Below, piece by piece: positions 833-63,217 of a stretch of DNA of 64,000 nt. The first letter of the stretch is position 1. Every line of letters starts with the position of its first letter. Origin of the DNA: Candidatus Latescibacterota bacterium (GTDB lineage Bacteria > Latescibacterota > CBDEFO01); NCBI GenBank assembly GCA_965248755.1, contig OZ252149.1, positions 1,920,001-1,984,000 on the forward strand, read 5' to 3'. Under the pieces are notes generated by a model. That model saw only the letters and a program-made list of their open reading frames with translations, was not told the DNA's origin and searched no databases. A program made the translations under genes and the position numbers.

Positions 833-986
833 CGAATGATTCTATCGGGGCTTCATCCCTCTGGTCATTCTGAGGGGCTTCTTCCCTCTTTCTCAAGAGG
901 GGCTTCACCCCGAAGCAAGCCCGCCTCTTACCTTGGCCCAGACTGAGCAACGTCATTGCGAGGCACTTCACCCCGAAGCAATCTCG
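833..986. repeat. Cluster of palindromic intergenic repeats (GTCATTGCGAG...GAAGCAATCTC type plus a 21-bp hairpin variant)
   Basis: gaatgattctatcgggg, repeated ggggcttc[a/t][t/c]ccc and gtcattgcgagg...cgaagcaatctc; a closely related cluster is at 19282-19410. Confidence 0.75.
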
Positions 987-1029
987 GAGGAATTGTTCCT
1001 TGATTCCTTAGCCGATAGGAACACCAGAT

Positions 1030-3489
1030 ATGAGAGTATTTTCAAAAGTTTTCGTGATTGCATCCCTATCTTTGACCTTTGCCGTAAACTGCATTTCCCC
1101 AGAAAGATCTGAATGGGAAAGACTAAACGAAAAGGCAGAAAGCCTCTACGAACAAGGTCAGTATGAGGAAGCAGTTAACTTTGCCAAAGAGGCTTTGAAA
1201 ATAGCTGAGGAAAGTTTCGGTACAGACCATCCCAATGTGGCGACCTGCCTTAACAATCTAGCATACCTTTATCATTCCCAGGGCAAGTATGCTGAGGCTG
1301 AGCCCCTTTATAAGCGGTCACTGGCAATAAGGGAAAAAGCTCTTGGCAAAGACCATCCTGATGTGGCGGCATCCCTGAACAATCTAGCGGGACTTTATGA
1401 ATCTCAGGGCAAGTATGCCGAGGCTGAGCCCCTTTACAATCGGTCACTGGCAATAGTAGAAAAAGCTCTTGGCAAAGACCACCCCGATGTGGCGTCCCCC
1501 CTGAACAATCTGGCGGAACTTTACAGAGCTCAGGGCAAGTATGCCGAGGCTGAGCCCCTTAACAAGCAGGCACTGGCAATATGGGAAAAAGCCCTTGGAA
1601 AAGACCATCCCGATGTGGCGACCTCCCTGAACAATCTGGCGGTACTTTATGATTCCCAGGGCAAGTATGCCGACGCTGAACACCTTTATATGCGGGCACT
1701 GGCAATAATGGAAAAAGCCCTTGGCAAAGACCACCCTGATGTGGCGACCTCCCTGAACAATCTGGCGGAACTTTACAGAGCTCAGGGCAAGTATGTCGAG
1801 GCTGAGCCCCTTTACAAGCAGTCACTGGCAATATGGGAGAAAGCTCTTGGGAAAGAGCATCCCAGTGTGGCGACCTCCCTGAACAATCTGGCGTTACTTT
1901 ATGATTCCCAGGGCAAGTATGCCGGGGCTGAACCACTTTACAAGCGGGCACTGGCAATAAGGGAAAAAGCCCTTGGAAAAGACCATCCCAGTGTGGCGAC
2001 CTCCCTGAACAATCTCGCGGTACTATATAAGACCCAGGGCAAGTATGTCGAAGCTGAGCCCCTTCACAAGCGGTCACTGGCAATAAGGGAAGAAGCTCTT
2101 GGAAAAGACCATCCCGATGTGGCGACCTCCCTGAACAATCTGGCGGTACTTTATAAGACCCAGGGCAAGTATGTCGAGGCTGAGCCCCTTTATGAGCGGG
2201 CACTGGGAATATGGGAAGAAGCCCTTGGCAAAGACCATCCTGATGTAGCTTACTCCCTGAACAATCTGGCGGGTCTTTATAAGACCCAGGGCAAGTATGC
2301 CGAGGCTGATCCGCTTTACAAGCAGTCACTGGCAATAGTAGAAAAAGCCCTTGGAAAAGACCACCCTGATGTAGCTTACTCCCTGGACAATCTGGCGGGA
2401 CTTTATAAGACCCAGGGCAAGTATGCCGAGGCTGATCCGCTTTACAAGCAGTCACTGGCAATAAGGGAAGAAGCTCTTGGAAAAGACCATCCCGATGTAG
2501 CGCAATCCCTGAACAATCTAGCAAACCTTTATCGTTCCCAGTGGAAGTATGTCGAAGCTGGGCCACTTTACAAGCGATCACTGGCAATAAGGGAAGAAGT
2601 CCTTGGAAAAGACCATCCCGATGTAGCGCAATCCCTGAACAATCTGGCGGCACTTTATCATTCTCAGGGCAAGTATGCCGACGCTGAGCCCCTGCACAAG
2701 CGTGCTCTGACAATAATAGAGAAAACCCTTGGCAGAGACCATCCCCATGTGGCGGCCTCTTTGAACTGTCTGGCGGAACTTTATAAGACTCAGGCCAAGT
2801 ATGTCAAAGCTGAACCCCTTGTCAAGCGGTCACTGGCAATTTTGGAAAAATCCTTTCGCAAAGATCATCCTGCTATGGCAACCTCCCTGAATAATCTGGC
2901 GCTAGTTTATGCTTCTCAGGGCAAGTACGTCGAGGCTGAGCCTCTTTATAAGCGGGCACTGGCAATGAGGGAAGAAGTCCTCGGGCCAGACCACCCCCAT
3001 GTCGCGCAATGCCTGAGCAACCTGGGGGAACTTTATGATTCCCAGGGCAAGAATGCTGAGGCTGAGCCCCTTCTGAAGCGAGCACTGGGAATAAGGGAAG
3101 AAGCTCTTGGCAAAGACCATCCCTATGTGGCGACCTCCCTGAACAATCTAGCAAACCTTTATCGTTCCCAGGGCAAGTATGCCGAGGCTGAGCCACTTTA
3201 CAAACGGGCACTGGCAATATACGAGAAAGCTCTTGGAAAAGACCATCCCAAAGTAGCTTACTCCCTTAGCGGTCTAGCGGAACTTTACAAAGATCAGGGC
3301 AAGTATGTCGATGCTGAGCCCCTTCTGAAGCGAGCACTGGGAATAAGGGAAGAAGCTCTTGGCAAAGACCATCCCTATGTGGCGACTGCGTTGGAGAATA
3401 TGGCAGTGCTCTACATAGAGATTGGAAAGGAAGATGAAGCCAAAAGGTTGGGGGAACGTGCAGAAGGAATTCGTTCAAGAAACCAATGA
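1030..3489 (+). CDS. Secreted or lipoprotein tetratricopeptide-repeat protein (kinesin-light-chain-type 42-aa TPRs)
   Basis: 18 HPxVAxSLNNLA..Y..QGKY.EAEPLY repeats plus an N-terminal TPR; hydrophobic N-terminus ending in AVNC (possible lipobox). Confidence 0.92.
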   Translation: MRVFSKVFVIASLSLTFAVNCISPERSEWERLNEKAESLYEQGQYEEAVNFAKEALKIAEESFGTDHPNVATCLNNLAYLYHSQGKYAEAEPLYKRSLAIREKALGKDHPDVAASLNNLAGLYESQGKYAEAEPLYNRSLAIVEKALGKDHPDVASPLNNLAELYRAQGKYAEAEPLNKQALAIWEKALGKDHPDVATSLNNLAVLYDSQGKYADAEHLYMRALAIMEKALGKDHPDVATSLNNLAELYRAQGKYVEAEPLYKQSLAIWEKALGKEHPSVATSLNNLALLYDSQGKYAGAEPLYKRALAIREKALGKDHPSVATSLNNLAVLYKTQGKYVEAEPLHKRSLAIREEALGKDHPDVATSLNNLAVLYKTQGKYVEAEPLYERALGIWEEALGKDHPDVAYSLNNLAGLYKTQGKYAEADPLYKQSLAIVEKALGKDHPDVAYSLDNLAGLYKTQGKYAEADPLYKQSLAIREEALGKDHPDVAQSLNNLANLYRSQWKYVEAGPLYKRSLAIREEVLGKDHPDVAQSLNNLAALYHSQGKYADAEPLHKRALTIIEKTLGRDHPHVAASLNCLAELYKTQAKYVKAEPLVKRSLAILEKSFRKDHPAMATSLNNLALVYASQGKYVEAEPLYKRALAMREEVLGPDHPHVAQCLSNLGELYDSQGKNAEAEPLLKRALGIREEALGKDHPYVATSLNNLANLYRSQGKYAEAEPLYKRALAIYEKALGKDHPKVAYSLSGLAELYKDQGKYVDAEPLLKRALGIREEALGKDHPYVATALENMAVLYIEIGKEDEAKRLGERAEGIRSRNQ
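1228..3430 (+). repeat. Intragenic 126-bp tandem repeat (TPR units)
   Basis: The HP codons recur every 126 nt from 1228 to 3370. Confidence 0.9.
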
Positions 3490-3587
3490 TGGCAACAGCG
3501 CCGTTCTCAGAGCTGGAAAGACAGCCGATCATCCTGCAGAACAGATAACTCCACAGACAGACATAGTCCGCCGCATCTCTACGGGAA

Positions 3588-3792
3588 GTCCCCGAGTGCT
3601 TCTATCGGGGACGTGTGCCTACCCCTGGGGCGAGTGAACCTCGCCCCTACATTCTATCTACTCAAAAGAGATTGCTTCGCTTCGCTCGCAAGGACAATTC
3701 ATTTTACCAAGGTCATTGCGAGGGGGCCTGCCCCGGAATGATTGATCCCCGAGCCCCCCGATAGATTCAATCGGGGGTTAAGTCGCAATCTC
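3588..3792. repeat. Intergenic repeat cluster: two 21-bp hairpins, a GTAG-type REP and GAGATTGCTTCG/GTCATTGCGAG elements
   Basis: ccccgagtgcttctatcgggg 3590-3610; ggggcgagtgaacctcgcccctac; gagattgcttcgcttcgctcgcaa; ccccgatagattcaatcgggg 3756-3776. Confidence 0.8.
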
Positions 3793-3797
3793 GCCGC

Positions 3798-5564
3798 TTA
3801 CTGCCGCGCGGTGACCGGCCAGATCGGATCGAGCTGCCAGGCGTCCAGCGAGACGAGCGTCGCATCGCCGCCGCGGGCGAACACGTCGATGCCCTTGCTG
3901 TCCGCTCGCGTCGGGTACACCCGCTGCGTCATGCAGAAACGCTTGTTCGGGAAGACCTCGACCATCGATCGATCGACAAACACGTGAAGCTCAAGCAGCT
4001 CATCGTCGGGCAGATCCAGGTCGCCGCTGTACACCGGCAGGTTCGGGTAACTACCGGCCTTTCTCATGACCAGCGTTTCGGGGTCGAGGCTTGCGTGGGT
4101 CTGATCGGCGATGAACTCTCTCTTCTTGCGGTCGTAGATGAATAGCGTCTGCTCCTTGCGGTCGGGCGAACAGAGAACCTTAATGCCGACGGCATCAGCG
4201 TCACCGGGGTCGATCACCGCGATGATCTCCAGCATATCTCCCTGCGGATCGGGTACGAAGTTCGATCCGGATTCGGTAATCGGCATCCGCTCGTACTGCC
4301 AGTGCTTCCGCCGCAGACTCTTGAGTTCCTCCACCGGCTCCTGGCCTAATGTGCCGTCGGGTCGCAGCGTGAGCATGCGGGGCAAAGAGTAGATGTTACT
4401 CCACCACTCGATGGGCGTTTTGTTCTCCGGATCCTCCTTGGAGAGCCACTCATTCTCCTGTCCCAGGTCTGCCGCTTCGTCTCTGGCGCGGTACCACGGG
4501 CTGTTACCCTCCCAGACCAGGCCGAAGATGATTCGCCTATTCTTGTCATCCTCGAAGCTCATAGCACAGCCGTAATAGCCGCCGGGGTCCAGAACAAACG
4601 CTTCGGATTCAGGGATGAAGCGATGATCCGAAAAACGGCCGATCCATCCCATCTCCTGCGTCATATCGAAAGCCTTTGGGTTGTCCCACTGCTCGCGGCC
4701 ATCTGCGGGCTTCTTCGGATAGGCGGTGATCAGTAGCACGTGTTTATCGCCCAACTTAAACATGTGCGACATGTCCCACTGTTCGCCGGAGACGGCGGGT
4801 GATTTGCCTTTCAGCAGAGGGTTGAGGTATCTCCAGTTCACCAGATCGTCGGATTGGAAGAGATAGGTAGTGCCGACGTTCTGCCCGGCGTCGTTCTGCG
4901 CACCGCCGGCCTTCCCACCGATCAGCGCGTACCAGGTCTGATCGTCCTCGTCCCACCAGGCGAACACATCCAGGTTAAGACGCTCTTCATCGGCGCACCT
5001 TTCCGGGATCACGGGGTTATCAGGGTGGCGCTTCCAGGTGACCATGCCGTCGTCACTTGTGGCTATGCTCTTGCAGCGGATTCTGGCCGAAGTGTATATG
5101 ATGGTGGGCACGCCGTTATTGATCACCGTCGAGCCGGTATAGATCCCGGCGTTGTCATAGCCATGAGGACCGTTCTCATCCTGCGGCGCCAGTGCTATGG
5201 GAAGGTCGTGCCAGTGAACCAGGTCCTCGCTGACGGCGTGCCCCCAGCTTTCGCTCGGACCCGAGGGCTCCTCCGAGGGCTTCGCACCGTGGGGTGCTGT
5301 CAGATAGAACAGGTGGTATCGGCCGTCGAACTGAATCGGTCCCTCCACGTCCCACCCGTAGCCGGTCGGTGGCAGGAAGTGGTACCCGGGTCTGTGCGGA
5401 TCACCCGCCAGCTTTTCCCGAACCGGGTGAATGCATTCGGGGAAGACGGACAGGAAATTCGGCCCGACGTAGTCTTGCTTATCAGCGTTGAGCCAAGCGG
5501 CCAGGTGCGGAAAGAGCTTTGAGTCCTTGGCTGTCTGTTGTGAGCGGTTACTGGGTATCTTCAT
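3798..5564 (-). CDS. Glycoside hydrolase family 32 protein (beta-fructosidase-like) with atypical catalytic motifs
   Basis: RPGYHFLPP, YHLFY, WGHAVSEDLVHW, YTGS, SLPRML, FVDRSMVEVF and TQRVYP motifs. Confidence 0.85.
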   Translation of the reverse strand: MKIPSNRSQQTAKDSKLFPHLAAWLNADKQDYVGPNFLSVFPECIHPVREKLAGDPHRPGYHFLPPTGYGWDVEGPIQFDGRYHLFYLTAPHGAKPSEEPSGPSESWGHAVSEDLVHWHDLPIALAPQDENGPHGYDNAGIYTGSTVINNGVPTIIYTSARIRCKSIATSDDGMVTWKRHPDNPVIPERCADEERLNLDVFAWWDEDDQTWYALIGGKAGGAQNDAGQNVGTTYLFQSDDLVNWRYLNPLLKGKSPAVSGEQWDMSHMFKLGDKHVLLITAYPKKPADGREQWDNPKAFDMTQEMGWIGRFSDHRFIPESEAFVLDPGGYYGCAMSFEDDKNRRIIFGLVWEGNSPWYRARDEAADLGQENEWLSKEDPENKTPIEWWSNIYSLPRMLTLRPDGTLGQEPVEELKSLRRKHWQYERMPITESGSNFVPDPQGDMLEIIAVIDPGDADAVGIKVLCSPDRKEQTLFIYDRKKREFIADQTHASLDPETLVMRKAGSYPNLPVYSGDLDLPDDELLELHVFVDRSMVEVFPNKRFCMTQRVYPTRADSKGIDVFARGGDATLVSLDAWQLDPIWPVTARQ

Positions 5565-5605
5565 TTTGAGTCCTTTCAGAAATATGCGAGTTCCAGAGTA
5601 AGACT

Positions 5606-6088
5606 CTACCTGCTCCCGATAGATTCATCGGAGGCTGCTGCCTGTAAGACCGCCTGAGTCACCTTAGTGTAGATTCCACATCTGCACAGGTTTCCCTTCA
5701 ACGCCTCTCTTATCTCCTCCTCCCTCGGATTCGGATTCTCATCCAAAAGGACTCTGGACGACAGAATGAATCCGGGTACGCAGTAGCCGCACTGGAGGGC
5801 GCCCGATTCTATGAAGGCCTCCTGCAGAGGATCTAATCTCTCCTCAACGGCGACTCCCTCTATCGTGGTTATCTGATATCTAGAGACACAGAGGGCGTTG
5901 ATTATACAGGACTTAACTATCTTTCCATCTACGATCACAGTGCACGACCCGCACCTTCCGTCCTCACACCCGCGCTTTGTGCCCGTCAGGCTCAAGTTTT
6001 CTCTTAAGACGTCCAGAAGTGTAGTATAGGGATCTACAAGTTCCTCGTAGCTCTCACCGTTCACAGTTAATTCCAGTCTGTACTTCAT
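5606..6088 (-). CDS. (2Fe-2S)-binding small subunit, xanthine/CO dehydrogenase family (CoxS/CutS-like)
   Basis: GTKRGCEDGRCGSCTV, QCGYC and GNLCRC motifs; RBS GGGGG before ATG 6088. Confidence 0.92.
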   Translation of the reverse strand: MKYRLELTVNGESYEELVDPYTTLLDVLRENLSLTGTKRGCEDGRCGSCTVIVDGKIVKSCIINALCVSRYQITTIEGVAVEERLDPLQEAFIESGALQCGYCVPGFILSSRVLLDENPNPREEEIREALKGNLCRCGIYTKVTQAVLQAAASDESIGSR

Positions 6089-6145
6089 CTTGTCCCCCTG
6101 AACAGACAAGAATGTCTGTTCTACCGTCTGTTTGTTTAGAGTGGC

Positions 6146-7021
6146 TCAGACATTCCTGTCTGACGCCCTCTTTGCAGCTTCTTCCAGAGCGTACCTGGAG
6201 ATAACTCCTACAAGATGCCTCTTGTACTCCGCCGAAGCTATTGGGTCCCCTATGGGTTCGATCTCCTGGGATGCAGTCTCTGCGGCATCTCTTATTACGT
6301 CTTCACCCAGAACCGACCCTATAAGCTTGCCCTCCGCCTCTTTTGCCCTTACGGGAGTGAAAGCGACAGACGATATAACGAGCCTTGCATCCTGACAGAC
6401 GCCCCCTGAATCCAGAAAGACCGAAGCGGCGGCGTTTGTGATGCCGTAGTCCCCCTCCCTTATAGTGAACTTTCTATATGCGCTCCCCGAGTTAGGAGGC
6501 ATTTCGGGGACCATTATTTCTGTTAAGACTTCATCGGCAAGAAGGGCAGATTCAAAATAGCCCACAAAGAAATCGTCCAGAGAGATCGTCCTTTCACCGT
6601 TGGCGCTTGCGGCTACCACGCTGGATTTCAGGCTCAAAAGAACGGGGGCGGGATCGGAAGCCGGATCGGCGTGGCACAGACTTCCGCCTATAGTCCCTGC
6701 GTTTCTGATCTGCACATCTGAGATTACGCCCACCATTTCCGATATAACAGGACAGTGATCCTTTATTACGTCCGATCTTTCGACATCCCGGTGCGTGGCC
6801 GCCGCTCCGATAGATAGCCCCTGGCCGTCTCTGTACTCGATAATATCCAGGTCAGGGATAAGTCTCAGACTTATCAGGAACTTAGGTTTTATCGCCCTGT
6901 TCCGAATCAGGGCCATAAGCGTCTGCCCGCCGGCTATTATCCTGGCCTCACCGCCCTTTTCGGCAAGGAGTTCACACGCTTCCTGAATCGTCTTCGGCTC
7001 AAAAAACTCACGTGCGTCCAT
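6146..7021 (-). CDS. FAD-binding medium subunit, xanthine/CO dehydrogenase family (CoxM/CutM-like)
   Basis: IAGGQTL, QIRNAGTIGGSLCHADPASD and SAEYKRHL; RBS GAGGGAG before ATG 7021. Confidence 0.92.
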   Translation of the reverse strand: MDAREFFEPKTIQEACELLAEKGGEARIIAGGQTLMALIRNRAIKPKFLISLRLIPDLDIIEYRDGQGLSIGAAATHRDVERSDVIKDHCPVISEMVGVISDVQIRNAGTIGGSLCHADPASDPAPVLLSLKSSVVAASANGERTISLDDFFVGYFESALLADEVLTEIMVPEMPPNSGSAYRKFTIREGDYGITNAAASVFLDSGGVCQDARLVISSVAFTPVRAKEAEGKLIGSVLGEDVIRDAAETASQEIEPIGDPIASAEYKRHLVGVISRYALEEAAKRASDRNV

Positions 7022-7147
7022 ATACTCCCTCGCTGTTATGTGCTTAATTTCTGCTCCATCTGTTCCAAGCGTCCTCTCAATTCTGTAATATCTTTTCGCT
7101 GCTGCTATATCAGGCCCTCCGGCCATTGCGCGGCGAATGAGTATTCG

Positions 7148-11125: not shown

Positions 11126-11346
11126 AGCAAACAGTAGACAGCAAACAGGAAAGAGGCAGTCTAAATCAGATTGTCTCGCCCACGTCGCGGCCTGGTGGTA
11201 CCCCAGCAAAGCGGCCACGGCGCTGCGCCCCTTCGTTCTGACTACAAGACATGTCCCCGATTAAACCCCTGATTGACTCTATCGGGGGTTGGGGGCAGCG
11301 AAGCAATCTGGTGGGAGGGGAGACGCGGCCTGTCTACTGTCTACTC
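11126..11346. repeat. Inverted heptamer-repeat element (AGTAGAC...GTCTACT) enclosing nested 21-bp hairpins
   Basis: agcaaacagtagacagcaaacag at left, ctgtctactgtctact at right, ccctgattgactctatcgggg at 11267-11287. Confidence 0.7.
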
Positions 11347-12898: not shown

Positions 12899-13900
12899 AT
12901 GTCTAAGGATCTGACTAAACACAAGATTCAGTTGGCTGAGGAGTTGCTCGATGACGTCGAGCTTTCGCGCCTAAAGCCCGAACAGGTACTGCTCAAGGTC
13001 TCGCGGCTGGCTCGGCTGGTTGACGCTGATGAGATTAGCAAGTGGATTCGTTTCGAACTGAATGGCTTCCCTAGCGATGACTGCGTAGCCCTGAAATACA
13101 TGGACAAAACAGGCCGTTGGACTAATAAAAACAATATGCTAGGCTATTGGAAGTCCTTAGCAGAAATCAACGGTCACATCACGGCGACGGAACTACAGAT
13201 CCAGCGTTTGAGGGTCCCCGATATCAACTTTTCGCCCTCAAGTTCCAACCCGACTGAGATTGTAACTGGTGCATTCGGTAGCCACATCGATCAAGTCACG
13301 AACTCTGTATCAACCGTTCTTAACCAACTACAATCTCTTGCGAACACAATCACCAAACTAAACGGCATTCGATCTCGCGTTCTATCGGCACTCCATGATT
13401 TCGTTGCGTCGACTTACTACGAACTGGTTTTTAGCGGCCTCGCCGAATCCATCTTTGAAAAGCACAAGTCAATGATTGATGCACCCCTTCGCGACACTGC
13501 AGGTGACGCCCTTGACAAGATCCCCGCGATTTACGACAGACTGACTGCCGGGGACCGGGAGGCAGTGAGCCAAGCCCTCAATACTTGCCGCAGGTTGATC
13601 AGGTCGTTAGCGGATTCGGTGTATCCTCCGCAAGATGGTACGATCACCATCGATGGCGAAGAGTTCCAGCTCGGAGCGAATGCCTATCTGAACCGGATCA
13701 AAGCCTACCTACATGAACACTGCCCCAGTGATTCGCGACGCAAACGTCTTCACAAAACTATCCGATCTGTGAATGAACGCGCCTCCGCAGGGGTGCACGC
13801 GGATGTGACACTTGATGAGGCCAAGTCTCTATTTCTGCAAACATATCTGACGCTGGGGGAAATTCTTCTAGTAAAAACCGACACCGCGCACGACACATAA
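12899..13900 (+). CDS. AbiTii-domain protein (putative abortive-infection/defence-associated)
   Basis: N-terminus LLKVSRLARLVDADEISKWIRFELNGF resembles AbiTii; C-terminal SAGVHA helical domain. Confidence 0.65.
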   Translation: MSKDLTKHKIQLAEELLDDVELSRLKPEQVLLKVSRLARLVDADEISKWIRFELNGFPSDDCVALKYMDKTGRWTNKNNMLGYWKSLAEINGHITATELQIQRLRVPDINFSPSSSNPTEIVTGAFGSHIDQVTNSVSTVLNQLQSLANTITKLNGIRSRVLSALHDFVASTYYELVFSGLAESIFEKHKSMIDAPLRDTAGDALDKIPAIYDRLTAGDREAVSQALNTCRRLIRSLADSVYPPQDGTITIDGEEFQLGANAYLNRIKAYLHEHCPSDSRRKRLHKTIRSVNERASAGVHADVTLDEAKSLFLQTYLTLGEILLVKTDTAHDT

Positions 13901-16676: not shown

Positions 16677-16713
16677 CCCCGAATTGAGCCCCCGATCTAA
16701 TCGGGGGTCGGGG
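16677..16713. repeat. Nested CCCCGA...TCGGGG hairpins
   Basis: ccccgaattgagc[ccccgatctaatcgggg]gtcgggg. Confidence 0.7.
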
Positions 16714-19245: not shown

Positions 19246-19410
19246 AGTCAGTAGACAGGGAATCGCCTTTCCTCCAAGCCCTCATTGCGCAAGCCGTCAT
19301 TGAGAGGGGCTTCATCCCTCTTGGTCATTGGAGAGGGGCTTCAGCCCGAATGATTCTATCGGGTCTTCATCCCGAAGCAATCCCCGACCCCCGATACAGT
19401 CAATCGGCGA
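19246..19410. repeat. Intergenic repeat cluster (heptamer arm, GTCATT..GAGGGGCTTCA..CCCGAAGCAATC and two 21-bp hairpin variants)
   Basis: Shares sequence with 833-986; hairpins at 19344-19364 and 19389-19409. Confidence 0.75.
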
Positions 19411-37677: not shown

Positions 37678-39449
37678 ATGGAGAAAAGCTATTTCAAACT
37701 TTATATAAGGCTCGTAAAGGAATTTCTACTTCCATATTGGAAGGCTATAGTCACCGCGCTTGTGTGTATGATCTGTATATCGGGGCTGAACGTGATTCCG
37801 GCTCTATCGGTAAAGTTTCTGATCGACGATATTATTCCCGATAAGGATTTGACTTTGCTCGGTCTCCTTGCCGGGGGTCTTGTTGTAGCCTATACTTTGA
37901 GGGCCATCACCGAGTTCGGTCAGGATTATCTAGCTCACAGGGTCGCCGAACAGGTGATGTTCGATCTGAGGGTGCAGGTATACGGACACGTTCAAAAGCT
38001 TTCGTCCAATTTCTTCAGGAACAGGCGCACAGGTGAGATCATGTCGAGGATAATCAACGACATCGATTCTCTAAGGGATATGTTAGCTCACAGCGGTGAT
38101 GCCATTGTAACTCAGAGTTTGAATGTTTTAGTCGTGGCTGCGGTTCTTTCAAACTCCAATGGAAACTTGCGCTCTTTACGTTGATTCCAATTCCTCTCAC
38201 TATCATTTTGGTCCTCTACTTTAATAAGGCTGTGCGTCAGGTGTACCAAAATGTGCGGGAAAAACTTGCGGACGTAAACGCACGGCTTCTGGATAACTTA
38301 TCGGGGATAGAGGTTATAAAGTCGTTTGTAATGGAGAGGCGGGAATTGAACAGATTTGCAGCGGAGAGCAAAGACTATTTCAATGAAAATATGGTAGCTA
38401 TAAAGCTATGGGCATATATATTTCCGACTATGATATTTGTCGTGGGTATTGGATCAGTGATAGTGATTTGGTACGGCGGAGGTCAGGTTATAAGTGGGGA
38501 GCTTACTGTGGGTGGCCTTGTAGCGTTTTCCGCTTTGGCTTGGAGGCTGTACTGGCCCCTTATGGACCTAGGTAGAGAGAACGAGAAGATTCAAAAGGCG
38601 ATGGCGGCTGTGAAGAGGATATTTGAGCTTTTAGATACCGAGCCTGAGATAAAGGACTCGCCTTCAGCGGTGGAGCTTACCCACCCCCGATTGAATCTAT
38701 CGGGGGTTAAAGGGGAGATTGAGTTCCAGGGAGTCTCGTTTGCTTACGACAGGGATTACGTTCTCAAAAATATAGATCTGAAGATCGAGCCTGGGGAAAT
38801 CATCGCACTTGTGGGTCCAAGCGGTGTGGGCAAGACTACTCTGGCGGGATTGATCCCGAGGTTCTACGATCCCGATGAGGGCACGGTTTCGATATACGGT
38901 ATAGACATTAAAGGGATAAAGCTTGAGTCCTTGAGGAGCAATATCGGGATTGTGCATCAGGAGACGTTTCTTTTCAATGGGACGATAGCAGAAAACGTAG
39001 GCTACGGGAAGATAGGAGCTACATTAGACGAGGTAGTTGAGGCTGCAAAGGCGGCGAATATATACGATTTTATATCCGAACTCCCCGATGGGTTTGACAC
39101 TGTGGTGGGAGAAAGAGGAGTCAAACTTTCCGGGGGACAGAAGCAGAGGATAGCTATCGCAAGGGCTATTTTGAAGGATCCGCCCATACTGATTTTAGAT
39201 GAGGCGACTTCATCTGTGGATACGGAGTCGGAACAGCTTATACAGCAGAGCTTGTCTTTCCTTTTGAAGGACAGGATGACCCTCATAATCGCTCACAGGT
39301 TAGCCACGATCAAGTCAGCCCACAGGATAGTGGTCTTAAAGGATGGAGAGATAGAGGAGATAGGGTCTCACTTCGAACTGATAGATAATGGCGGCGCATA
39401 CAGCCGCCTCCACGATGCGCAGTTCGGCAGCCGAGAAGCGGTGGAGTAG
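37678..39449 (+). pseudogene. MsbA-like ABC exporter (TMD+NBD), frameshifted near 38148
   Basis: ORFs 37678-38184 and 38181-39449 join if one T is restored (AVLFKLQWKLALFTLIP); GPSGVGKT, LSGGQKQR and LILDEATS. Confidence 0.85.
38685..38705. repeat. 21-bp hairpin inserted in frame in the ABC gene
   Basis: ccccgattgaatctatcgggg encodes PRLNLSG within ELTH|VKGEIEF. Confidence 0.85.
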
Positions 39450-45429: not shown

Positions 45430-45650
45430 TGGCATAGAGTGTGGCCACTGCAAGCTGACGGTGCGTGAGGAATTGCCGGGGCAACAAAAAGGTCGTAGGT
45501 GACCTTGCCATCCCCGATCGATTCTATCGGGGAAGAACTTTTTGGGGGACAAAGGAATTGGAGGTCTTAAAAAAAGCCGTGGCAGATGATAAAAGCGGAA
45601 AAGTAAAGATCACTGTCGAAAATGAAGGTGCTCCTGACGCAGATCTAATT
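45430..45650 (+). pseudogene. Gene fragments (HMA-like CGHC segment, then a short ORF carrying a 21-bp hairpin)
   Basis: SGIECGHCKLTVREELPG; hairpin 45512-45532, whose removal restores LAIRTFW. Confidence 0.3.
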
Positions 45651-46800: not shown

Positions 46801-47187
46801 GGTACTGCATAACTAAGGTTGCACTAATTTAGCTCTTGGACAGCTTATTGATAGAGTAGTTTTCTAATAAGTGGAAGGAGATTTTCGTGGCGATGGTTGA
46901 AGCGCCACTCGAGTTCTTTAAGATAAAGGTGGAAGTAGTTCTTGTCAATACCTCCCCGATAGAATCAATCGGGGATCGCTGGTAAAGCCAGTGTTTGGCA
47001 TATGACCAGAAGCCTTCCACTCCATTGAGGTGATCTCTTCCTTTAGCTATTCCTTTCTCTTTGGGCACTACCACATGATTGCCACTGATAGAAAGGGAGG
47101 CATAGGCTATCCAATCAACAGTATAATATAAGCTCCCTGGTTTGGTGTGTTGGGCAATAAGAGGAAGCAGTGACTTTCGACTCCTTG
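46801..47187 (-). mobile_element. IS1595-family (ISXO2-like) remnant: transposase 3' part and right end
   Basis: HLNGVEGFWSYAKHWL then, frameshifted, FHLYLKELEWRFNHR; end ttagttatgcagtacc; truncated by IS256. Confidence 0.85.
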
Positions 47188-48534
47188 GGGTGTGTAAGGA
47201 AATTTGTGTAAATGGGGAAATGAGTTATATTAGTTGGCCACCATTTACATAAGGAGTTCTTACATGGACAAGCTAGACCCGAAGTTGATTGATGAGCTTT
47301 TGAAGGACTACAAGAAGCCGGAAGACATAATTGGTGAGGAAGGTCTTTTGAAGCAGTTGACGAAGGCGATTCTTGAGCGGGCTCTGGAGTCAGAGCTTAC
47401 GTATGAGTTAGGCTACGATAAGAGTTCTCCAGAAGGGAGGAACAGCGGTAATTCGCGCAACGGTAGGAGCACAAAGGGATTGAAGACAGATTATGGTGAT
47501 CTGGAGATATCGGTGCCACGGGATCGGAACAGTCAGTTTGATCCGCAGATAGTGAGGAAGGGGCAGAGGCGATTTACAGGTTTTGATGATAAGATACTGT
47601 CTATGTATGCCCGAGGGATGACCACACGTGATATACAGGCTCATTTGGAGGAGATATACGGTGTAGAGGTGTCCCCTGATTTGATATCGACTGTGACCGA
47701 TGGGATCATATCAGAGGTGAAGCAGTGGCAGGATCGTCCTTTTGAAGGGGTGTATCCCATAGTATTCTTTGATTCTCTGGTGATGAAGATTAGAGACGAA
47801 GGCCGGATCGTAAACAAGGCGGTGTATCTTGCGGTAGGGGTCGGTCTGGATGGGATGAAAGACGTTTTGGGTATCTGGATTGCAAAGAGCGAGGGGGCGA
47901 AGTTCTGGCTGCAAGTTTTCACGGAGCTTAAGAATCAGGGGATGAACGATGTGTTGATAGCTTGCGTGGATGGTCTCCAGGGTCTTCCAGAGGCTATTGA
48001 ATCCGTATTTCCCCAAGCAGAGGTCCAGCTCTGTATTGTCCATGTGGTGAGGAATTCCTTGAAGTTCGTGTCGTATAAGGACCGTAAGGAGATTGCCGCC
48101 GACCTCAAGAATATATACCGAGCCCCCACGGTAGAACAGGCTGAAGAGGCCCTTGGAGATTTTCAGGAGGCTTGGGACAGCCGTTATCCGATGATAAGTA
48201 AATCGTGGCAGAATAACTGGTCTCGGATCATCCCGTTTTTCGCCTACTCTGAAGAGATCCGAAGGGTGATCTATACCACAAACGCCATCGAATCGCTTAA
48301 TAACTCTCTACGGAAAGTAATAAAGAACAGAAATAGCTTCCCAAACGACGAGGCAGCGATTAAGTTACTCTATATGGCACTCGAGAATATCAAGAAAAAA
48401 TGGACGATGCCGATCAGGAACTGGAGCTTGGCCATTCACCAATTCTCCATCCACTTCGAGGGGAGATTTGGTATAGAATAAGCCGAAAAGGGTACAGAAG
48501 AAAATCCCATTTACACAAAAAAACTGACAGACCC
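47188..48534 (+). mobile_element. IS256-family insertion sequence
   Basis: 29-bp imperfect terminal IRs gggtgtgtaaggaaatttgtgtaaatggg / rc gggtctgtcagtttttttgtgtaaatggg; no target duplication. Confidence 0.92.
47264..48481 (+). CDS. IS256-family transposase
   Basis: VPRDR, MYARGMTTRD, FFD, CVDGL, QLCIVH and YTTNAIES; AAGGAG RBS. Confidence 0.95.
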   Translation: MDKLDPKLIDELLKDYKKPEDIIGEEGLLKQLTKAILERALESELTYELGYDKSSPEGRNSGNSRNGRSTKGLKTDYGDLEISVPRDRNSQFDPQIVRKGQRRFTGFDDKILSMYARGMTTRDIQAHLEEIYGVEVSPDLISTVTDGIISEVKQWQDRPFEGVYPIVFFDSLVMKIRDEGRIVNKAVYLAVGVGLDGMKDVLGIWIAKSEGAKFWLQVFTELKNQGMNDVLIACVDGLQGLPEAIESVFPQAEVQLCIVHVVRNSLKFVSYKDRKEIAADLKNIYRAPTVEQAEEALGDFQEAWDSRYPMISKSWQNNWSRIIPFFAYSEEIRRVIYTTNAIESLNNSLRKVIKNRNSFPNDEAAIKLLYMALENIKKKWTMPIRNWSLAIHQFSIHFEGRFGIE

Positions 48535-56675: not shown

Positions 56676-57378
56676 TGGAAACACTGGCGATCATCTTGAA
56701 TGGAGTCAGCAAGATCTATCCTGTCGGGGTCCGTGCATTGGATGGGGTCAGCCTGAGCATCTCGCAGGGCGAATGTGTAGTCATCACGGGCCCGTCGGGG
56801 TCCGGCAAGACCACACTTTTGAACCTGCTCGATGGTCTTGATAGACCAACAAGCGGCTCTCTCGAGGTGCTGGGAGTAGATATCACCCGTTTGAGCTCAG
56901 ACGAGGCGGCGACGTTTCGGCGAGAACACATTGGGATGGTGTTTCAACAGTTCCATCTTATCCCCTACCTGACTGCACTGGAGAATGTGATGTTGGCACA
57001 GTACTACCACTCGATGGTGGATGAGGCGGAGGCCAGATGCGTCTTGGAATGCTTCGAAATGGTCCATCGTACCGACCACCTGCCTGCCCAGCTCTCCGTG
57101 GGTGAGCAGCAGCGTGTCTGCATTGCCCGTGCGCTGATCAACGATCCGAAATCATTTTGGCTGACGAGCCGACCGGGAATCTGGATGAGACCAATGAGGA
57201 GAAAGTGCTGGAGATCTTTCGCAGGTTGCACAGAGACGGAAAGACGCTCGTCGTTGTGACCCACAACAGGGCACTGGCGTGTGTGGCTGAGAGAACAATC
57301 TTGCTGCGGCATGGGCGAGTCGTAAGGGATAGCCACAGAGCGGGGAGTGCAGAGCTATTGTCTTCACCGGGGTCCTGA
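56675..57378 (+). pseudogene. LolD/MacB-type ABC ATPase, frameshifted near 57150
   Basis: GPSGSGKT and LSVGEQQR; Walker B (I)ILADEPTGNLD is restored by adding one A. Confidence 0.88.
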
Positions 57379-57537
57379 GCTGGTTCGAATGATGGCTTAT
57401 GTCCGGGAGTTCATTCTGTTTACTGGTCTACGATAATCTGCTCTATAAGGAACAGAACGTTGAAAGGAAGCTAAAGAGATCCTAACGCCTAAAAGAAAAC
57501 GGATGGCCCTATCAAACCGATTCGGGAAGCGATCAAC

Positions 57538-58069
57538 ATGTTAGAAGAGGTCTGGAAAAGCTTCAACAAGAACAAGATCACCCACAGCGCGGTGCATCAT
57601 CTAATGTCAATTATGGAACTGACTTAGGAGCATGGATACGCCCGCGTATCAGACATTGCCAGGAATTTAGACATCACAAGGGGGAGTGTATCAGTTACTC
57701 TCAGACCACTAAAGGAGAGGGGATACATACTTGAAGACCGAAATAAATTCCTTCTCCTTTCGTCTGAGGGGGAGGGGATCGCGCAGGCTGTTCAGTCCAA
57801 AAGAAAGATATTAATAAAATTCTTCAATGAGGTGCTAAAAGTGGACTCGATGCAGGCGGAGATAGATGCCTGCAAGGTGGAACATCTGATCAGCAGTCAA
57901 ACGGCTGAGAAACTTCTGAGCTTTTTACAATTTCTATTTGACAGGAACAAGGAGACTCAGGCATTCATTGGATGTGTTTTTAAAGCGTAAAGAACGCAAC
58001 GATATATGTGCTGATTTAGATCAATGTCCAGTGTGGGACGGGGGTGAATGTCTTATGCAACAGTTCTAA
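57538..58069 (+). pseudogene. DtxR/MntR-family metal-dependent repressor pseudogene (not in ORF track)
   Basis: ITHSAVHHLMSI.EL.*EHGYARVSDIARNL...GSVS...AEIDACKVEHLIS; TAG at 57625; Cys-rich tail after a frameshift near 57966. Confidence 0.85.
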
Positions 58070-58133
58070 TGAAGTTCTAATCGCAGCCGACGCTTACCAT
58101 TCATCTTTTACAAGATCAAAGGAGGTCATCAAA

Positions 58134-59294
58134 ATGCTTTTAACAAGGCGTATGGTATTGGCAGTATTATGCATCTTGGTTACTTACAGTGGCTTGACGT
58201 GGGCGGAGGAAGTTGAAAAGGAGCGTCCAACAGTGCCGGGAGGGATGTACGACAAACCCTATATACGGCGAGCCGGAAGGGGTGCTCTCCTGGGAGGATA
58301 CATGGACCACGAGTTCGAGTGGGCGGAAGACGGGGATAAGACCTTCGATCAGCACAGATTTATCCCCTTCATCTATTCGGAGATCACAGACCGCATCCAC
58401 GTATCTACAGAGATAGAGTACGAGCACGGAGGATTGGTAAAGGGAAAAGGGGAGACGGACGGCGAGATAAAGTTGGAGTTTGCCACCCTCGACTTTGCAA
58501 TAGCCGAATGGCTGAACTTCCGCGGCGGAGTCATATTGTCGCCACTTGGGAAATTCAACCTCATACACGACAGCCCGATAAACGATCTTACAGCCAGACC
58601 TATGGTTGACAGACAGATAATCCCTACGACCTTGAGCGAATCGGGCATGGGAATCTACGGGACGCTCTATCCAACCGAGCTTTCGCTTTTGGGCTATGAG
58701 ATATATGTAGTGAACGGTTTCAACCAAAGGATTATAAAGGGCACGGATACAAGGATCAGGAGCGGAAGGGGGAGTCAGAAGAAGGATAACAACGAGGATA
58801 AGGCGATTACAGCGAGAGTGAACTTCAGTCCGAAATTGGGCATAGATCTGGGGGCGTCGGTTCATACGGGAGATTACGATGATGAGGGCAAATACAATCT
58901 GACGATTTTTGCTCTGGACGGCGCATATACAAGAGGAGCTTTAGATCTTTTAGGCGAGTATGCAAGGGCGGAGATAGATGTAGACAAGGCTGACTTGCCA
59001 AACGCCGCAGAATCTCAGCAGGGATATTACCTTCAGGCAAGCTATCACTTTCTGCACGACGTCATCCTTCCCACCTCTGTCTTTACAGGCGTGGTCAGAT
59101 GGGACTCCGTAGATTTCGACGCGGATATAGATGGCGACGATCAGGAGCGCCTGACCTTGGGCTTAAATTTCAGACCTGTGGAGGATTCCGTCTTCAAGAT
59201 AGACTGGCAGTTCAATTGGAAAAGGGGCGAAAATAGCAGCACCCGGAGCAAGCCCCAAAACCGCTTCTTTTTCTCGATAGCTTCTTATTTTTAG
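58134..59294 (+). CDS. Outer-membrane porin (OprO/P-like beta-barrel)
   Basis: Signal peptide; EIEYEHGG, GKFNLIHDSP, RP.VDRQIIPTT, LGLNFRP..VFKID and terminal YF; GGAGG RBS. Confidence 0.8.
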   Translation: MLLTRRMVLAVLCILVTYSGLTWAEEVEKERPTVPGGMYDKPYIRRAGRGALLGGYMDHEFEWAEDGDKTFDQHRFIPFIYSEITDRIHVSTEIEYEHGGLVKGKGETDGEIKLEFATLDFAIAEWLNFRGGVILSPLGKFNLIHDSPINDLTARPMVDRQIIPTTLSESGMGIYGTLYPTELSLLGYEIYVVNGFNQRIIKGTDTRIRSGRGSQKKDNNEDKAITARVNFSPKLGIDLGASVHTGDYDDEGKYNLTIFALDGAYTRGALDLLGEYARAEIDVDKADLPNAAESQQGYYLQASYHFLHDVILPTSVFTGVVRWDSVDFDADIDGDDQERLTLGLNFRPVEDSVFKIDWQFNWKRGENSSTRSKPQNRFFFSIASYF

Positions 59295-59414
59295 ACAGGT
59301 TCTGTCCTCTTGGGGATTCGGTGCGGCTCTGAGTCTATGAGTGTAACATTATCTGTTCCTCCCTCTTGACTTGGAGCCTATCCGGATCCTTGTCAACAAC
59401 AAAGACAAAAAGGG

Positions 59415-60041
59415 ATGCCGATAAAGGAGACTAGCATCTTTAGTCTGAAGACTTTCCTGTATGCTGTAATAGTGAGCTTTCTCTGGGCATCCGTCTGGGC
59501 TCAACAGGAAAGACCGAGCGAAGAGGAGATAGGTTCTATCCAGGTCTATCTGACTCAGGAAGAAGCCTTAAATAAGATGTTCCCGAATGCCGACAGCGTC
59601 TCCCTAGAAGAACGCATTTTAAGCGATGAGGAGAAAAAGGAAATAGAGGAGCGTTTGGGATGGAGGTTAGAAAATAACGAATTCAAGGTCTATATCGGAT
59701 GGAAGGATGATAAGGTCGACGGCTATGCACTGATAACGAACCAGATAGGTATGTACAGACCGATTACCTTTATAGTTAAGGTCAATCCCAAAGGGAAAAT
59801 AGAGAATATGGCTATTATGGTGTATAGAGAATCCAGAGGAGGCGAAGTTAAAAGAAAGCGTTTTTTGCATCAGTTTTTCGGAAAAAGTTCTCAAAGAAAA
59901 ATCAGAATGAACAGGAATATCATCAATATCACAGGGGCTACTCTATCTGTAAGGGCTGTGATTGCTGGCACCAAGAGGGTCTTGACTATAATAGATGAGC
60001 TCTATCTTAGGGAGGACAATGGCACAAATAAGTACAGATAA
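59415..60041 (+). CDS. Secreted FMN-binding (flavinylation-substrate) domain protein
   Basis: YRESRGGEV...FL.QF.GK and the NITGATLS flavinylation motif. Confidence 0.85.
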   Translation: MPIKETSIFSLKTFLYAVIVSFLWASVWAQQERPSEEEIGSIQVYLTQEEALNKMFPNADSVSLEERILSDEEKKEIEERLGWRLENNEFKVYIGWKDDKVDGYALITNQIGMYRPITFIVKVNPKGKIENMAIMVYRESRGGEVKRKRFLHQFFGKSSQRKIRMNRNIINITGATLSVRAVIAGTKRVLTIIDELYLREDNGTNKYR

Positions 60042-60759
60042 ACCGATTAAGAGAGGCATGCCCGTCAGCAGATCTAATGGAGGCGTAAAAAGACTTAAGA
60101 ATATAACAAAGCAGGTTCATCGGTATATAGGAGCTTCAAGCGCTGTCTTTATATTTCTGCTATCTGTAAGCGGCTTACTTTTGCACTATCCTGGGCTTTT
60201 AGGAGGCGAAGCCGAAAAAATCCTTTCGATGGTTGTGGACCCCGAGGATTACACAAGGATGTTCAAAGGGACTAATATAGGATTGTACCTATCCCGGGAC
60301 GGTGGCGAAAGCTGGGACGAAGTCCCCATGATGCTTCCAGCTGAGAATGTAGTGGATATAGCCTTTGCGCCGGATGAGACGAATAGAATCTATGCGGCTA
60401 TGAGAGATTTCGGAGTAATACGATCAGATGACAGTGGGAGGATATGGGAGAACCTAAATCTGCCCCTTGTACCGGCTGCGGAGGGAGTTGAGATTAGAGG
60501 TCTGGCTTTAGGACCCAAAGGGACGATTTGGTTGAATACATCTCAGGGCGCTCTGTTGAGTTCAAACGCAGGCAAAACCTGGAATTGGGTGGAAAAGAAG
60601 TATAAATCAAATGGACTCTGGGATGTGGTCCATTCAATTCATACAGGCTATTTCTTCGGGAAGTGGTTTACTTACGTCTATGATGCTGCTGCTGTCGGAT
60701 TAGTCCTGCTTATAGGCACCGGCATGTATATCTGGCGAAAAACCAACGGCAGGAATTAG
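60019..60759 (+). CDS. PepSY-associated TM-helix protein with BNR/Asp-box insert
   Basis: HRYIG...SVSGLLLH; S.DGG.SW Asp-boxes; IHTGYFFG...TGMYIW. Confidence 0.8.
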   Translation: MAQISTDKPIKRGMPVSRSNGGVKRLKNITKQVHRYIGASSAVFIFLLSVSGLLLHYPGLLGGEAEKILSMVVDPEDYTRMFKGTNIGLYLSRDGGESWDEVPMMLPAENVVDIAFAPDETNRIYAAMRDFGVIRSDDSGRIWENLNLPLVPAAEGVEIRGLALGPKGTIWLNTSQGALLSSNAGKTWNWVEKKYKSNGLWDVVHSIHTGYFFGKWFTYVYDAAAVGLVLLIGTGMYIWRKTNGRN

Positions 60760-60785
60760 AAGGGACATCGAAAACTTATTCCTTA

Positions 60786-60974
60786 ATGGGTGATGATGTG
60801 TAAAATACCGCTGCACGTCTTGCCTCACATGCAGGATCGGGAGAGATCATTGTAAGTGAGGATACCTGCAATGCTGCCGCACTGGATATTGAGAGACTGG
60901 AGAAACGCCGACTTGAGCTGAAGGGACATAGTGAACCTGTAAATGCGCGTGTTATCCGTGTCAGACCTTCTTAA
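60786..60974 (+). pseudogene. Class III adenylate/guanylate cyclase C-terminal fragment
   Basis: GDD(V)NTAARLASHAGSGEIIVSE...LELKGHSEPV*. Confidence 0.75.
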
Positions 60975-60989
60975 ACTTGACCATGCTAC

Positions 60990-61140
60990 TACTGGCTATA
61001 AAAAATCAAATGCGGGATACTACAGGGTTCCGCGGGACGGTAAAGATAATAATGGAGAGAGTCTTGCAAGTGGTGTATATCTCTATCGGATGGAGACGGA
61101 TGGATTTGTGCAGATGAGGAAACTGATATTGATGAGGTAG
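60990..61140 (+). pseudogene. FlgD-Ig/T9SS-type C-terminal domain fragment
   Basis: AGYYRV..DGKDNNGESLASGVYLYRM....VQMRKLILMR*. Confidence 0.75.
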
Positions 61141-61185
61141 GTTCTAAACCCTTTTTCACAAAAGCTCGCAGAGTATCAAATATGC

Positions 61186-61217
61186 AGTCCGTCAGAAATG
61201 TCGGACTTTCTTCTTTT
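61186..61217 (+). terminator. Rho-independent terminator (paralog of 63396-63424)
   Basis: agtccgtca-GAAA-tgtcggact followed by a T-rich tail. Confidence 0.6.
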
Positions 61218-61383
61218 AAGGTCTTTTTCATGAGTTTTTATAGTTCCTATAAACAATATCACAAAGCACTTGAACCTCACTGTTGACAGTGTTATTATTC
61301 AGTAAAGCAATTCAGCATTACAACCACTTGATAACACGGAGGCTCATAGAGAAGGTAATACAACTGACAACAAAACGGCAAAT

Positions 61384-61480
61384 TCAATTGCCCTTTCCCT
61401 TAAACCTTCTTGCCTTCTGTTTAAACAGCCTTTTTAACTCCAATAATTCCTGATCATTGAATATCCTGAAATTACTTTGG
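61384..61480 (-). pseudogene. 3' end of a second MerR-HTH paralog, truncated by IS3
   Basis: QSNFRIFNDQELLELKRLFKQKARRFKGKGN*, homologous to about 50395-50485. Confidence 0.8.
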
Positions 61481-62773
61481 TGTAGTGTGCCCCAGGAAAG
61501 CGACACCAATTAAGCAACTTGGGGTAGCAGATAGAATTGTTTTCTTCACTCTTCCGGGGTCTTGTACCCCAGGGATGAATGAAGACGGTTCTTGTTGTAA
61601 TTATCGATCCACTGAGATATGACCTTCTCAGCCTGTTCAAAGGATACAAAATTGTGAAGCCAAACACACTCTTGCTTGAGGGTCCTGAAAAAACGCTCTA
61701 CAACACCGTTCCAATCAGCCTTGCTACCTGGAATGTATTCTTGACGGATCCCCTAATATTTGGTGCTTGCCAAATAGGCCCGAGCCAAAAAGATGGAACC
61801 ATTGTCAGAGCGCAAAGTGAGACCCTGGGGGACAGCCTCCTTGGAAGTGTATCGAGAGATCACGGCCCGATCCAGGGCATCTGTGGCCTCCAGTGCCCTC
61901 CCTCTTCGACTAAAACGATACCCAGGAACCTCCCGACTCCCGTTGTCCACTACCGCAATAAGAGGACACCAACCATCTTTTCCACAATAGATCTTGGTCA
62001 AGTCAGCCGACCAGAGACTGTCAGGACGATCCATCACAGAACGCTTCTGGGCAACCTGTGTCTCCTTTCTCCCGGGACGATTCCACAGCTTACACTAGCC
62101 ATCCCTTAAGCTTCATTATCCTATGAACCTTCTTGATGTTGACACATGCCCCTTCCTTGAAACGAAGATGCGCCCAAACCCGCCTGTGACCAAATGCCTC
62201 TTCTTGGTCGAGTATCCCTCAAATACGAAAAGCAAGCTGTTCATCTATCACAGGCTCTTTGACAGAAGAACTGACACCTCTATCCCTAAGCCTATACAGA
62301 GTCGAACGATGCAAACCCAAAGCCATAGCTACCACCTTGCGGAAATAGCCTCGACCCCAAAACCGTCCACTCAAGACAACCGCTTCGTTTTTTTTAGACG
62401 GGCTGCCCCCGGAGTATCTCCAACTGGAGCGTCAACTGCCCTACCTTGCGCTCCAACCGGCTGACCTCCCGCTCCTTCGGATCCTTGCGACCACGCCGAG
62501 ACTTCAGACTCTCCTGGCCTCCTTCTAAGAAACTATCACGCCAAGCATACGCCTGTGACTGGCTAATTCCATTCTTCCGACACACCTCTGATACATCCAC
62601 TCCACTTAAAAGAGCCAACACAACCTCTGCCTTACGGGTCGCCGTCCAGCGCTTACCATCTTTCACTTCGGGGCTTGACACTGTGACCTCCTTTCCCCGA
62701 TAGTATCACTAGGGGACAAGCCGCAAACCCCAATTTGCAAATTCTTTGTCGCTCTGTCAAGGGGAGCGGTATG
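61481..62773 (-). mobile_element. IS3-family element, decayed
   Basis: OrfA 62394-62681 (HTH); A-run near 62388-62395; OrfB WSADLT, RSDNGSIF with TAG at 61753; end tgtagtgtgcccaggaaagcgaca and a decayed counterpart near 62747-62773. Confidence 0.85.
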
Positions 62774-63217
62774 CTTGTTCATCACCAGCTAACCATAAAT
62801 GCCTTTCGGTCAACTGTATGGCATTGCGGCTAACGTCTTAAGATACCCACCTTGGCTCGCCAGAGTTGCCGGGAGGCGCAGCGCCTGTCGTCGAAGCCGG
62901 AGAGAACCTGGTGAGCTTCACCTGCGACGTTCGAGGGGACATCAATCCGCGAGCCTTTGTGACAGTAATCAGCCGGGGTGAGTCGCTATAGAAACTTCTT
63001 GAATATTCCCTTAACGTTCTGTGAAAAAGTTTTGGCATAGGTGGTCGCAGAGCCTTCACTCCCTGCACTGAGCCAGATGTGCGAAGCGTTTTCCAGGTGT
63101 CTGAGAAACTTTCTCACATAATCTGTCCTAATCATTCCTCTGTCTCAATCATTCCAAGGAGGCCTGCCCCCGATTGATTCTATCGGGAGGGTTGCTTGGC
63201 GTCGCTGGCATTGACAG

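Follow-up and report, generated by a model that had tools for sequence, protein, structure and literature searches.

Small dispersed repeats (SDRs) of heterocyst-forming cyanobacteria, reportedly described by Elhai et al. in 2008, raised a question that has been open since: how repeats of 20–30 bases move. According to passages of papers citing that work, SDR5 is 21 nt long with an unknown function (PMC13756078) and inserts precisely within HIP1 (PMC4390886). Among repetitive extragenic palindromic (REP) sequences, those of the CGTC type are described in the available text of Di Nocera et al. as lacking a dedicated transposase, and the relation of tagged to untagged hairpins is left open there (Di Nocera et al., 2013; PMC3733652). 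Ssn proteins of the GIY-YIG type cut single-stranded DNA at CGTC-type hairpins, with mobility put forward only as a hypothesis in the part of the paper available (Chenal et al., 2025; PMC11893778). Here we analyzed a stretch of 64,000 nucleotides from Candidatus Latescibacterota bacterium (assembly GCA_965248755.1, contig OZ252149.1, positions 1,920,001 to 1,984,000; hereafter the window), through which hairpins of the form CCCCGAT-N7-ATCGGGG are dispersed. This hairpin family is mobile and has been inserted hundreds of times. We consider it probable that the element is a mobile non-coding hairpin of 23 bp, likely descended from the CGTC REP hairpin and likely pasted in trans by a hairpin-recognizing enzyme that nicks the two strands about 4 nt apart.

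The hairpin works like cyanobacterial SDRs, and by its defining features it is not a CGTC REP, a REPIN, or a MITE (miniature inverted-repeat transposable element), though its core is the CGTC REP hairpin. With SDRs, as portrayed in the citing papers, it shares a size near 21 nt, a non-coding and dispersed nature, mobility, and the lack of a known mover. It differs from SDR5 in its loose target and in the removal or doubling of about four bases, where SDR5 is precise in HIP1, and from SDRs generally in occurring in other phyla and in having a core traceable to CGTC REP arms. With CGTC REPs and the Ssn-related NTS and SRM hairpins, as far as the accessible text describes them, it has in common an 8-bp stem; the stem of the tagged form starts with AT, and this form often terminates in a CCA-type tail, the core equals the REP arms, and some tagged arms lie beside Ssn-like genes (PMC3733652; PMC11893778). 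The element itself carries neither the CGTC tag nor the tail, and its loop is longer than the 4–5 nt given for CGTC families (PMC3733652). It also moves as a single unit rather than as a dimer, landing in REPs, in insertion sequence (IS) genes and in itself. Like REPINs in the available account, it is non-autonomous, palindromic, mostly extragenic and present in hundreds of copies; REPINs are REP doublets accompanied by a REP-associated tyrosine transposase (RAYT), while here the hairpins are single and no RAYT was found in the genome under study (Bertels and Rainey, 2011; PMC3116915). Where the hairpin adds peptide to ordinary genes by entering them in frame, it recalls Rickettsia palindromic elements, which at about 150 bp, like MITEs at 70–300 bp, are far from the 23–27 bp of the hairpin, which mostly deletes target bases (PMC10969869, as partly available). 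The element is likely a repeat hairpin that became, once its tag was gone, one of the smallest mobile DNAs. The family supplies dozens of filled and empty site pairs, a sharp junction rule (23 minus 4 or 23 plus 4, never 23 itself), a parent that can be traced and a handful of candidate movers, which makes the question testable with oligonucleotides.

The family was characterized in the whole source genome (G000; 4.54 Mb, one contig, 98% complete), with a same-genus relative (G001; 4.6 Mb) for comparison. A copy was defined as CCCCGAT-N7-ATCGGGG with up to three substitutions, and two order-5 Markov genomes with the same 6-mer statistics served as the control. A hairpin or variant was present at all 13 window sites listed in an earlier sequence-only reading of this DNA; the pattern is perfect at four of them (3756, 38685, 45512, and 46954), and the first copy is better bounded at 830–850. 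Across G000, perfect arms around a loop of length 7 occur 237 times against 0.13 expected per spacing, while loops of length 3 and 6 gave 16 and 3 cases and lengths of 4, 5, and 8–13 gave none. Allowing three substitutions raises the count to 554 copies, and each Markov genome held zero perfect copies and one at this tolerance. The claimed occurrence in both orientations was borne out, with the loop in one direction in 131 and in the other in 106 of the 237 perfect copies. An assembly or adapter artefact was ruled out by contigs of public sequencing runs, including three other studies, that span window copies. Contigs of run X1, which may be the source sample, span five window copies without any difference; those of X5, X6, and X9, from the three other studies and a relative about 96–97% alike, span the copies at 38685 (X5, X6), 45512 (X5, X6, X9), and 46954 (X9). 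No empty allele at a window copy was seen among the listed matches of these contigs. A literature search, which lacked most subscription papers, found no published description of this hairpin family.

Unit and flank statistics were computed on a non-redundant set of 404 copies of G000. The unit is not the 21 bp first proposed; it comprises 23 bp, the core plus T…A (188 copies) or C…G (118 copies) ends, with a further subfamily of 27 bp. Which end pair a copy carries depends on its loop variant (p 9e-7), so the pair is inherited with the element. Flanks had been described as usually complementary, which held for the first pair (201/237 perfect copies) and failed for the second, which is at chance (61/237, and 29% of the 404 copies). 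On either strand, the predicted fold is an 8-bp stem with a 7-nt loop and a closing T-A or C-G pair. A leader subfamily has A or G at core position 7: CCTG or CTTG stands on the left in 21 of 43 copies without T at that position versus 10 of 261 others (p 1.6e-13). Leader and 23-bp unit together make 27 bp, and the window copies at 62695 and 63168 have such a leader. The 16 copies of G000 with loop length 3 represent a short form with a 17-bp core.

Evidence for mobility came from sites found both filled and empty. The comparison with G001, at a median identity of 96.1% over 80 fragments, spanned 2.4 of its 4.6 Mb plus a few loci, and G000 paralogues were also compared with each other; for 8 of the 13 window copies, the compared DNA contained no partner in which both flanks were present. 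This yielded 75 non-redundant filled/empty pairs, whose flanks were at least 82% alike, and 60 pairs at a stricter cut of 88%. At single-copy loci, G000 alone has 21 copies and G001 alone 31, while 89 and 88 were shared and 28 and 28 differed otherwise, often through nested copies. A REP-dimer repeat in G000 was empty in 14 places and filled, by exact pattern, in 16. This repeat of about 160 bp (G000:C1 about 1311930 and some 30 other places) has two separate hairpin hot spots; at one of them the loop is found in either direction, which speaks for repeated insertion or for inversion of the loop. The empty members of pairs that differ by 19 bp are not excision products because they hold four bases missing from the filled site. 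The earlier picture of a minimal non-autonomous element that enters genes, IS elements, other repeats, and itself in both orientations thus agrees with our data.

The junctions follow an unusual rule. Net gains among the 75 pairs were +27 (19 pairs), +19 (17), +18 (9), +20 (8), +21 (7), and +24 (3), with 12 scattered values and none at +22 or +23, and the 88% cut gave the same picture. A gain of 19 corresponds to the 23-mer in place of four target bases. A gain of 27 arises in two ways, through the 23-mer plus a duplication of 4 bp or through clean entry of the leader form (window 62695–62721), the 27-bp form being the only one that inserts cleanly. The absence of target duplication stated before does not hold, since 4-bp duplications surround the 23-bp unit in 17 of the 404 copies, and all 17 read YNNR; 300 shuffles gave 2.6 on average and never more than 8. 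Duplication directly beside the 21-bp core was rejected by a genome-wide check. Losses of 2–5 target bases outnumber duplications among the pairs. The proposal that the element enters the center of short palindromes also has to be dropped, as the unit usually replaces 3–5 target bases and the second flank pair is complementary in only 29% of copies. In the +19 pairs, the ends beside the filled unit were complementary in 14 of 15 cases, whereas the corresponding empty-site bases matched in just 8 of 15; the complementary flank base is brought by the element, and some pairs change both bases.

Flank composition is symmetric: position -2 favors a purine (81% left, 76% right), and positions -4 and -5 favor pyrimidines, so that YYNR precedes each end. 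In another genome, G206, CAAG stands on both sides in 3/3 copies, with no empty site seen. One REP site that reads CTTG when empty (G000:C1 4145403 and 679742; G001:C8 1850156) is filled as CAAG…CAAG, CTTG…CTTG, or CAAG…CTTG, which indicates that not only doubling but also inversion of the four flanking bases can happen. Extra or changed bases beside the unit recur, such as a left G in two unrelated +20 families, and this suggests that some donor flank is carried along during insertion. In the mechanism that we propose, a trans-acting enzyme would nick the two opposite target strands about four bases apart and the hairpin would be copied in, each of its ends being attached at a purine|pyrimidine step that follows a loosely defined YYNR motif of the target. 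Loss of the four intervening bases would give +19 (with three or five lost, +20 or +18), and copying them would give +27. Nick polarity or repair may set the choice between loss and copying, and 0–5 bases of donor flank would sometimes come along.

Copies accumulate in repeats and are scarce in genes. Another repeat type or another copy lies within 45 bp of 284 of the 554 copies (another copy in 116 cases), compared with 243 of 5000 random places, and 22 of 553 neighbor distances are below 100 bp. Just 75 of 554 copies lie inside open reading frames (ORFs) of at least 200 aa, though such ORFs make up 71% of G000, and some of these are in doubtful 5′ extensions. A length divisible by three had been thought to make the hairpin tolerable in ORFs; gains of 19 and 20 shift the frame, however, and the in-frame copies in genes reflect selection. 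Gains were multiples of three in 9 of 10 cases inside long ORFs versus 23 of 50 outside, which argues for selection rather than a design in threes. One copy sits in a gene bearing a recognizable motif, which we take to be PheS. The hairpin is a mutagen that adds loops of 6–9 residues to ordinary proteins and frameshifts IS genes.

A single sequence is patchily common to distant lineages. Among 41 genomes of relatives the perfect pattern occurred in three (G000 with 237 copies, G001 with 268, G024 with 1), and the exact 23-mer was found in 3 of 301 genomes of the phylum of another carrier, G041 (18, 3, and 1 copies). A scan of one genome per species returned at least 94 loci, most in one Candidatus Latescibacterota record; the other carriers among the matches listed were metagenome-assembled genomes of Deltaproteobacteria or Thermodesulfobacteriota and one short Nanoarchaeia contig. 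Viral contigs gave no match to the family pattern, and of 118 matches to the arms alone, three had a similar loop and were taken as chance.

At the deltaproteobacterial loci, the same hairpin is an arm of CGTC-type REPs. With a GTCAT tag, it was found in a metagenome scan at no fewer than 125 loci (about 980 estimated), mostly as REP dimers. Cores of the leader subfamily are identical letter for letter to tagged REP arms (for example, L265 and L292), and the main-form core differs from these arms at core position 7 and in the loop. A REP of G041 (L398) holds a bare copy with a REP-type loop in place of TCGG, with one additional base, while the paralogous REP (L392) is empty. Both GTAG-type and CGTC-type REPs are present in G000, which holds only two tagged copies of the hairpin; neither a CGTC nor a TGTC tag is among the commonest flanks of the 404 copies, and the GTAG tag is not in their flanks. 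Judged by these shared sequences, the hairpin likely derived from a CGTC-tagged REP hairpin after loss of the tag.

This origin brings Ssn-like genes into view. Five of the 125 tagged loci listed lie 12–118 bp from a gene 49–59% identical to the Ssn-like protein of G001 (L286, L327, L353, and L356 among them). With two Ssn-like genes in about 21 Mb of carrier DNA, the number expected by chance would, as a rough estimate, be far below one; 122 ORFs were listed near tagged hairpins. In G001, the Ssn-like gene stands between CGTC REPs. Short GIY-YIG genes of this kind between inverted CGTC-type REPs (L225:1410-1770 in G001 and L551:1075-1430 in G062) are 70% identical across distant lineages. Stubs consisting of a CGTC REP and the first codons of an Ssn-like gene occur in G000 at G000:C1 3547897, 2979200, 3031450, 2714207, 1272115, and 1852133, several of them embedded in a larger repeated unit. 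Also abundant in G000 are GTAG-type REPs, GTCATTGCGAG-type REPs and arrays of the heptamer CTACTGT/C, the last presumably linked to a four-helix-bundle family; these abundant repeats seem to have outlived their partner genes.

Several explanations other than a tagless REP hairpin pasted in trans by a hairpin-recognizing enzyme were weighed. That the motif is not mobile at all, being a protein-binding site or terminator produced through point mutation or gene conversion or else an artefact of assembly, would suit a family whose copies are mostly intergenic. This explanation is refuted by the filled/empty pairs, and we give it practically no credence: presence and absence are clean in otherwise identical flanks, copies are nested, insertions frameshift IS genes, and contigs of other studies contain the hairpin. 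An ultra-short MITE moved by a DDE transposase with a 4-bp duplication would account for the 8-bp inverted ends, the 17 duplications, and the many IS copies in G000. We regard it as very improbable, given that losses of target bases are commoner than duplications and there is no fixed target-site duplication, that the hairpin ends are unlike those of the IS3-type element in the window (the one IS type compared), and that 23 bp would likely be too short for a two-ended transposase complex. Movement as a single strand by a RAYT or other Y1 (HUH) transposase, which the sequence-only reading had suggested, is improbable, although the unit is predicted to fold as a DNA hairpin, GTAG- and CGTC-type REPs are present in G000, and Y1_Tnp genes were found in 4/4 Deltaproteobacteria-type carriers searched. 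Neither of the two richest carriers, G000 and G001, gave a match to Y1_Tnp (PF01797), and G000 has just the two tagged copies. Y1 insertion, as in IS200/IS605, is precise, without loss or duplication, unlike our 75 pairs, in which a gain of 23 was never seen.

Type II topoisomerases cut with a 4-nt stagger and act at REPs and hairpins. A conserved host enzyme, such as gyrase or topoisomerase IV, might join an extruded hairpin into its staggered break with the ends held as phosphotyrosines, and gains of 19 and 27 are indeed 23 minus and plus 4. Also in its favor, no dedicated enzyme common to the carriers emerged, yet G000 has 21 lineage-specific gains. We nevertheless consider it unlikely, as a universal enzyme leaves the amplification of one exact sequence in 3/41 and 3/301 genomes unexplained, and the literature search found no paper linking topoisomerase to such repeats. 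A more far-reaching version, in which a REP hairpin sheds its tag and becomes a free 23-bp unit, passes between phyla without change and is pasted at nicks four bases apart, with loss or doubling of these bases and without need of its own transposase in the host genome, by a host topoisomerase-type enzyme or an Ssn-type joining activity, is in our view doubtful. If true, it would amount to a new insertion chemistry and would explain the origin of untagged small repeats.

Returning to a tagless REP hairpin pasted in trans at staggered nicks, the enzyme is the weakest part of the proposal. The mover may tentatively be an Ssn-type GIY-YIG nuclease acting with host repair, or, to the same tentative degree, another dedicated enzyme; within this proposal a host topoisomerase is unlikely, a RAYT rather more so, and a DDE transposase would be a considerable surprise. 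The Ssn-type nuclease is the best named candidate because of the REP origin, and it falls short on presence in G000. The following observations weigh against the proposal as a whole or against this enzyme. No Ssn-like gene was found in G000 or in six of the eight carriers checked, two having one; six of these carriers are draft genomes of smaller size with no stated completeness. The earlier reading had looked to a nuclease or transposase gene flanked by clusters of the motif, and the two Ssn-like genes found in carriers are flanked by other hairpin sequences. In the available part of the SsnA study, cutting is reported rather than joining or transposition, and it depends on bases upstream of the palindrome as well as on the palindrome sequence, while our bare unit has no tag (Chenal et al., 2025; PMC11893778). 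The count of five tagged loci among 125 near Ssn-like genes comes without a matched control scan, some of the 19 pairs with a gain of 27 are one tandem event viewed twice, and several of the 75 pairs have untidy junctions that obey no rule. The copies show no replication-strand bias (236 versus 250). Finally, lineage-specific copies are barely less worn than shared ones (p 0.068), so that copy wear does not demonstrate present-day activity, and the enzyme may have been lost after the split of G000 and G001.

Other candidate movers fared no better. The only GIY-YIG protein of G000 is a UvrC-sized open frame of 608 aa. A reverse transcriptase was rejected, with two matches in G000 (L525 and L527; G000:C1 3731598 and 3678513) and none in G001, as were DUF559, which is not in G000, a four-helix-bundle protein, with one stop-containing copy in G000 and none in G001, and GxxExxY, found in neither genome. 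Ku-type end joining is unlikely, as Ku was found in 0/8 carriers. ORFs between flanking copies were ordinary genes, as judged by their translations without a Pfam scan. At 24 loci of other carriers, no neighbor gene was shared beside the copies, the matches being housekeeping-like.

Within the window, sequence comparison places a degenerate intergenic copy at 829–851 (core 830–850, forward strand), a 23-bp copy with T…A ends and a REP-type loop, adjoining a GTAG-type repeat, at 3589–3611 (forward), and a worn copy with a loop one base shorter at 5613–5633 (reverse), at the 3′ end of a CoxS-like 2Fe-2S ORF (5606–6109). Nesting can be read from the sequence for the 23-bp copy with C…G ends at 3755–3777 (reverse), which lies within remains of older copies in a GTCATTGCGAG-type repeat, and for the copy at 11266–11288 (forward), which sits in the loop of an older hairpin. 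The 19-bp short-loop form (17-bp core) at 16689–16707 (forward) is nested in an older copy within the predicted 5′ stretch of a transketolase-like ORF. A degenerate copy at 19343–19365 (forward) belongs to an intergenic repeat cluster, another copy follows the left arm of an older hairpin at 19388–19410 (reverse), and the 23-bp copy at 45511–45533 (forward), with T…A ends, is intergenic and common to G001. An AbiTii-domain gene at 12899–13900 had little or no cover by contigs of relatives.

The perfect 23-bp copy at 38684–38706 (forward), also common to G001, lies in frame in an ABC transporter gene and adds seven residues (PRLNLSG) before the ATPase domain, where the paralogues shown have a 7-residue gap; the G001 orthologue is open for 591 aa, insert included. 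In the window, this gene (37678–39449) forms two ORFs, split near 38146–38184. Contigs of X5 and X6 have one extra base at the split, while a contig of X2 agrees with the window, and the frameshift looks real and strain-specific.

IS elements host the remaining copies and one empty site. A perfect 23-bp copy at 46953–46975 (reverse) marks the frame-shift point of an IS1595-family transposase remnant, and a sister of this copy represents a gain of 20 versus an empty paralogue. Beside this remnant, an IS256/Mutator-family transposase (47234–48481) has inserted, which is multi-copy and nearly identical in G000. An IS3-type element at 61480–62773 (reverse), with about 69 long copies in G000, hosts one filled and one empty site. 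The empty site, ACGA at 62077–62080 (forward) in orfB, is likewise empty in 56 G000 copies and filled in 15, with a gain of 20 bp. These 15 copies form a subfamily also present in G001, and eight of them, compared across 340 bases, show no difference; this frameshifted subfamily seems to have spread in trans. The filled site, near the IS end at 62695–62721 (reverse), holds the 27-bp leader form (GCTTGT plus core), and exactly these 27 bp are missing from other IS copies. A second 27-bp leader form (CCTG plus the 23-bp unit) follows at 63163–63189 (forward).

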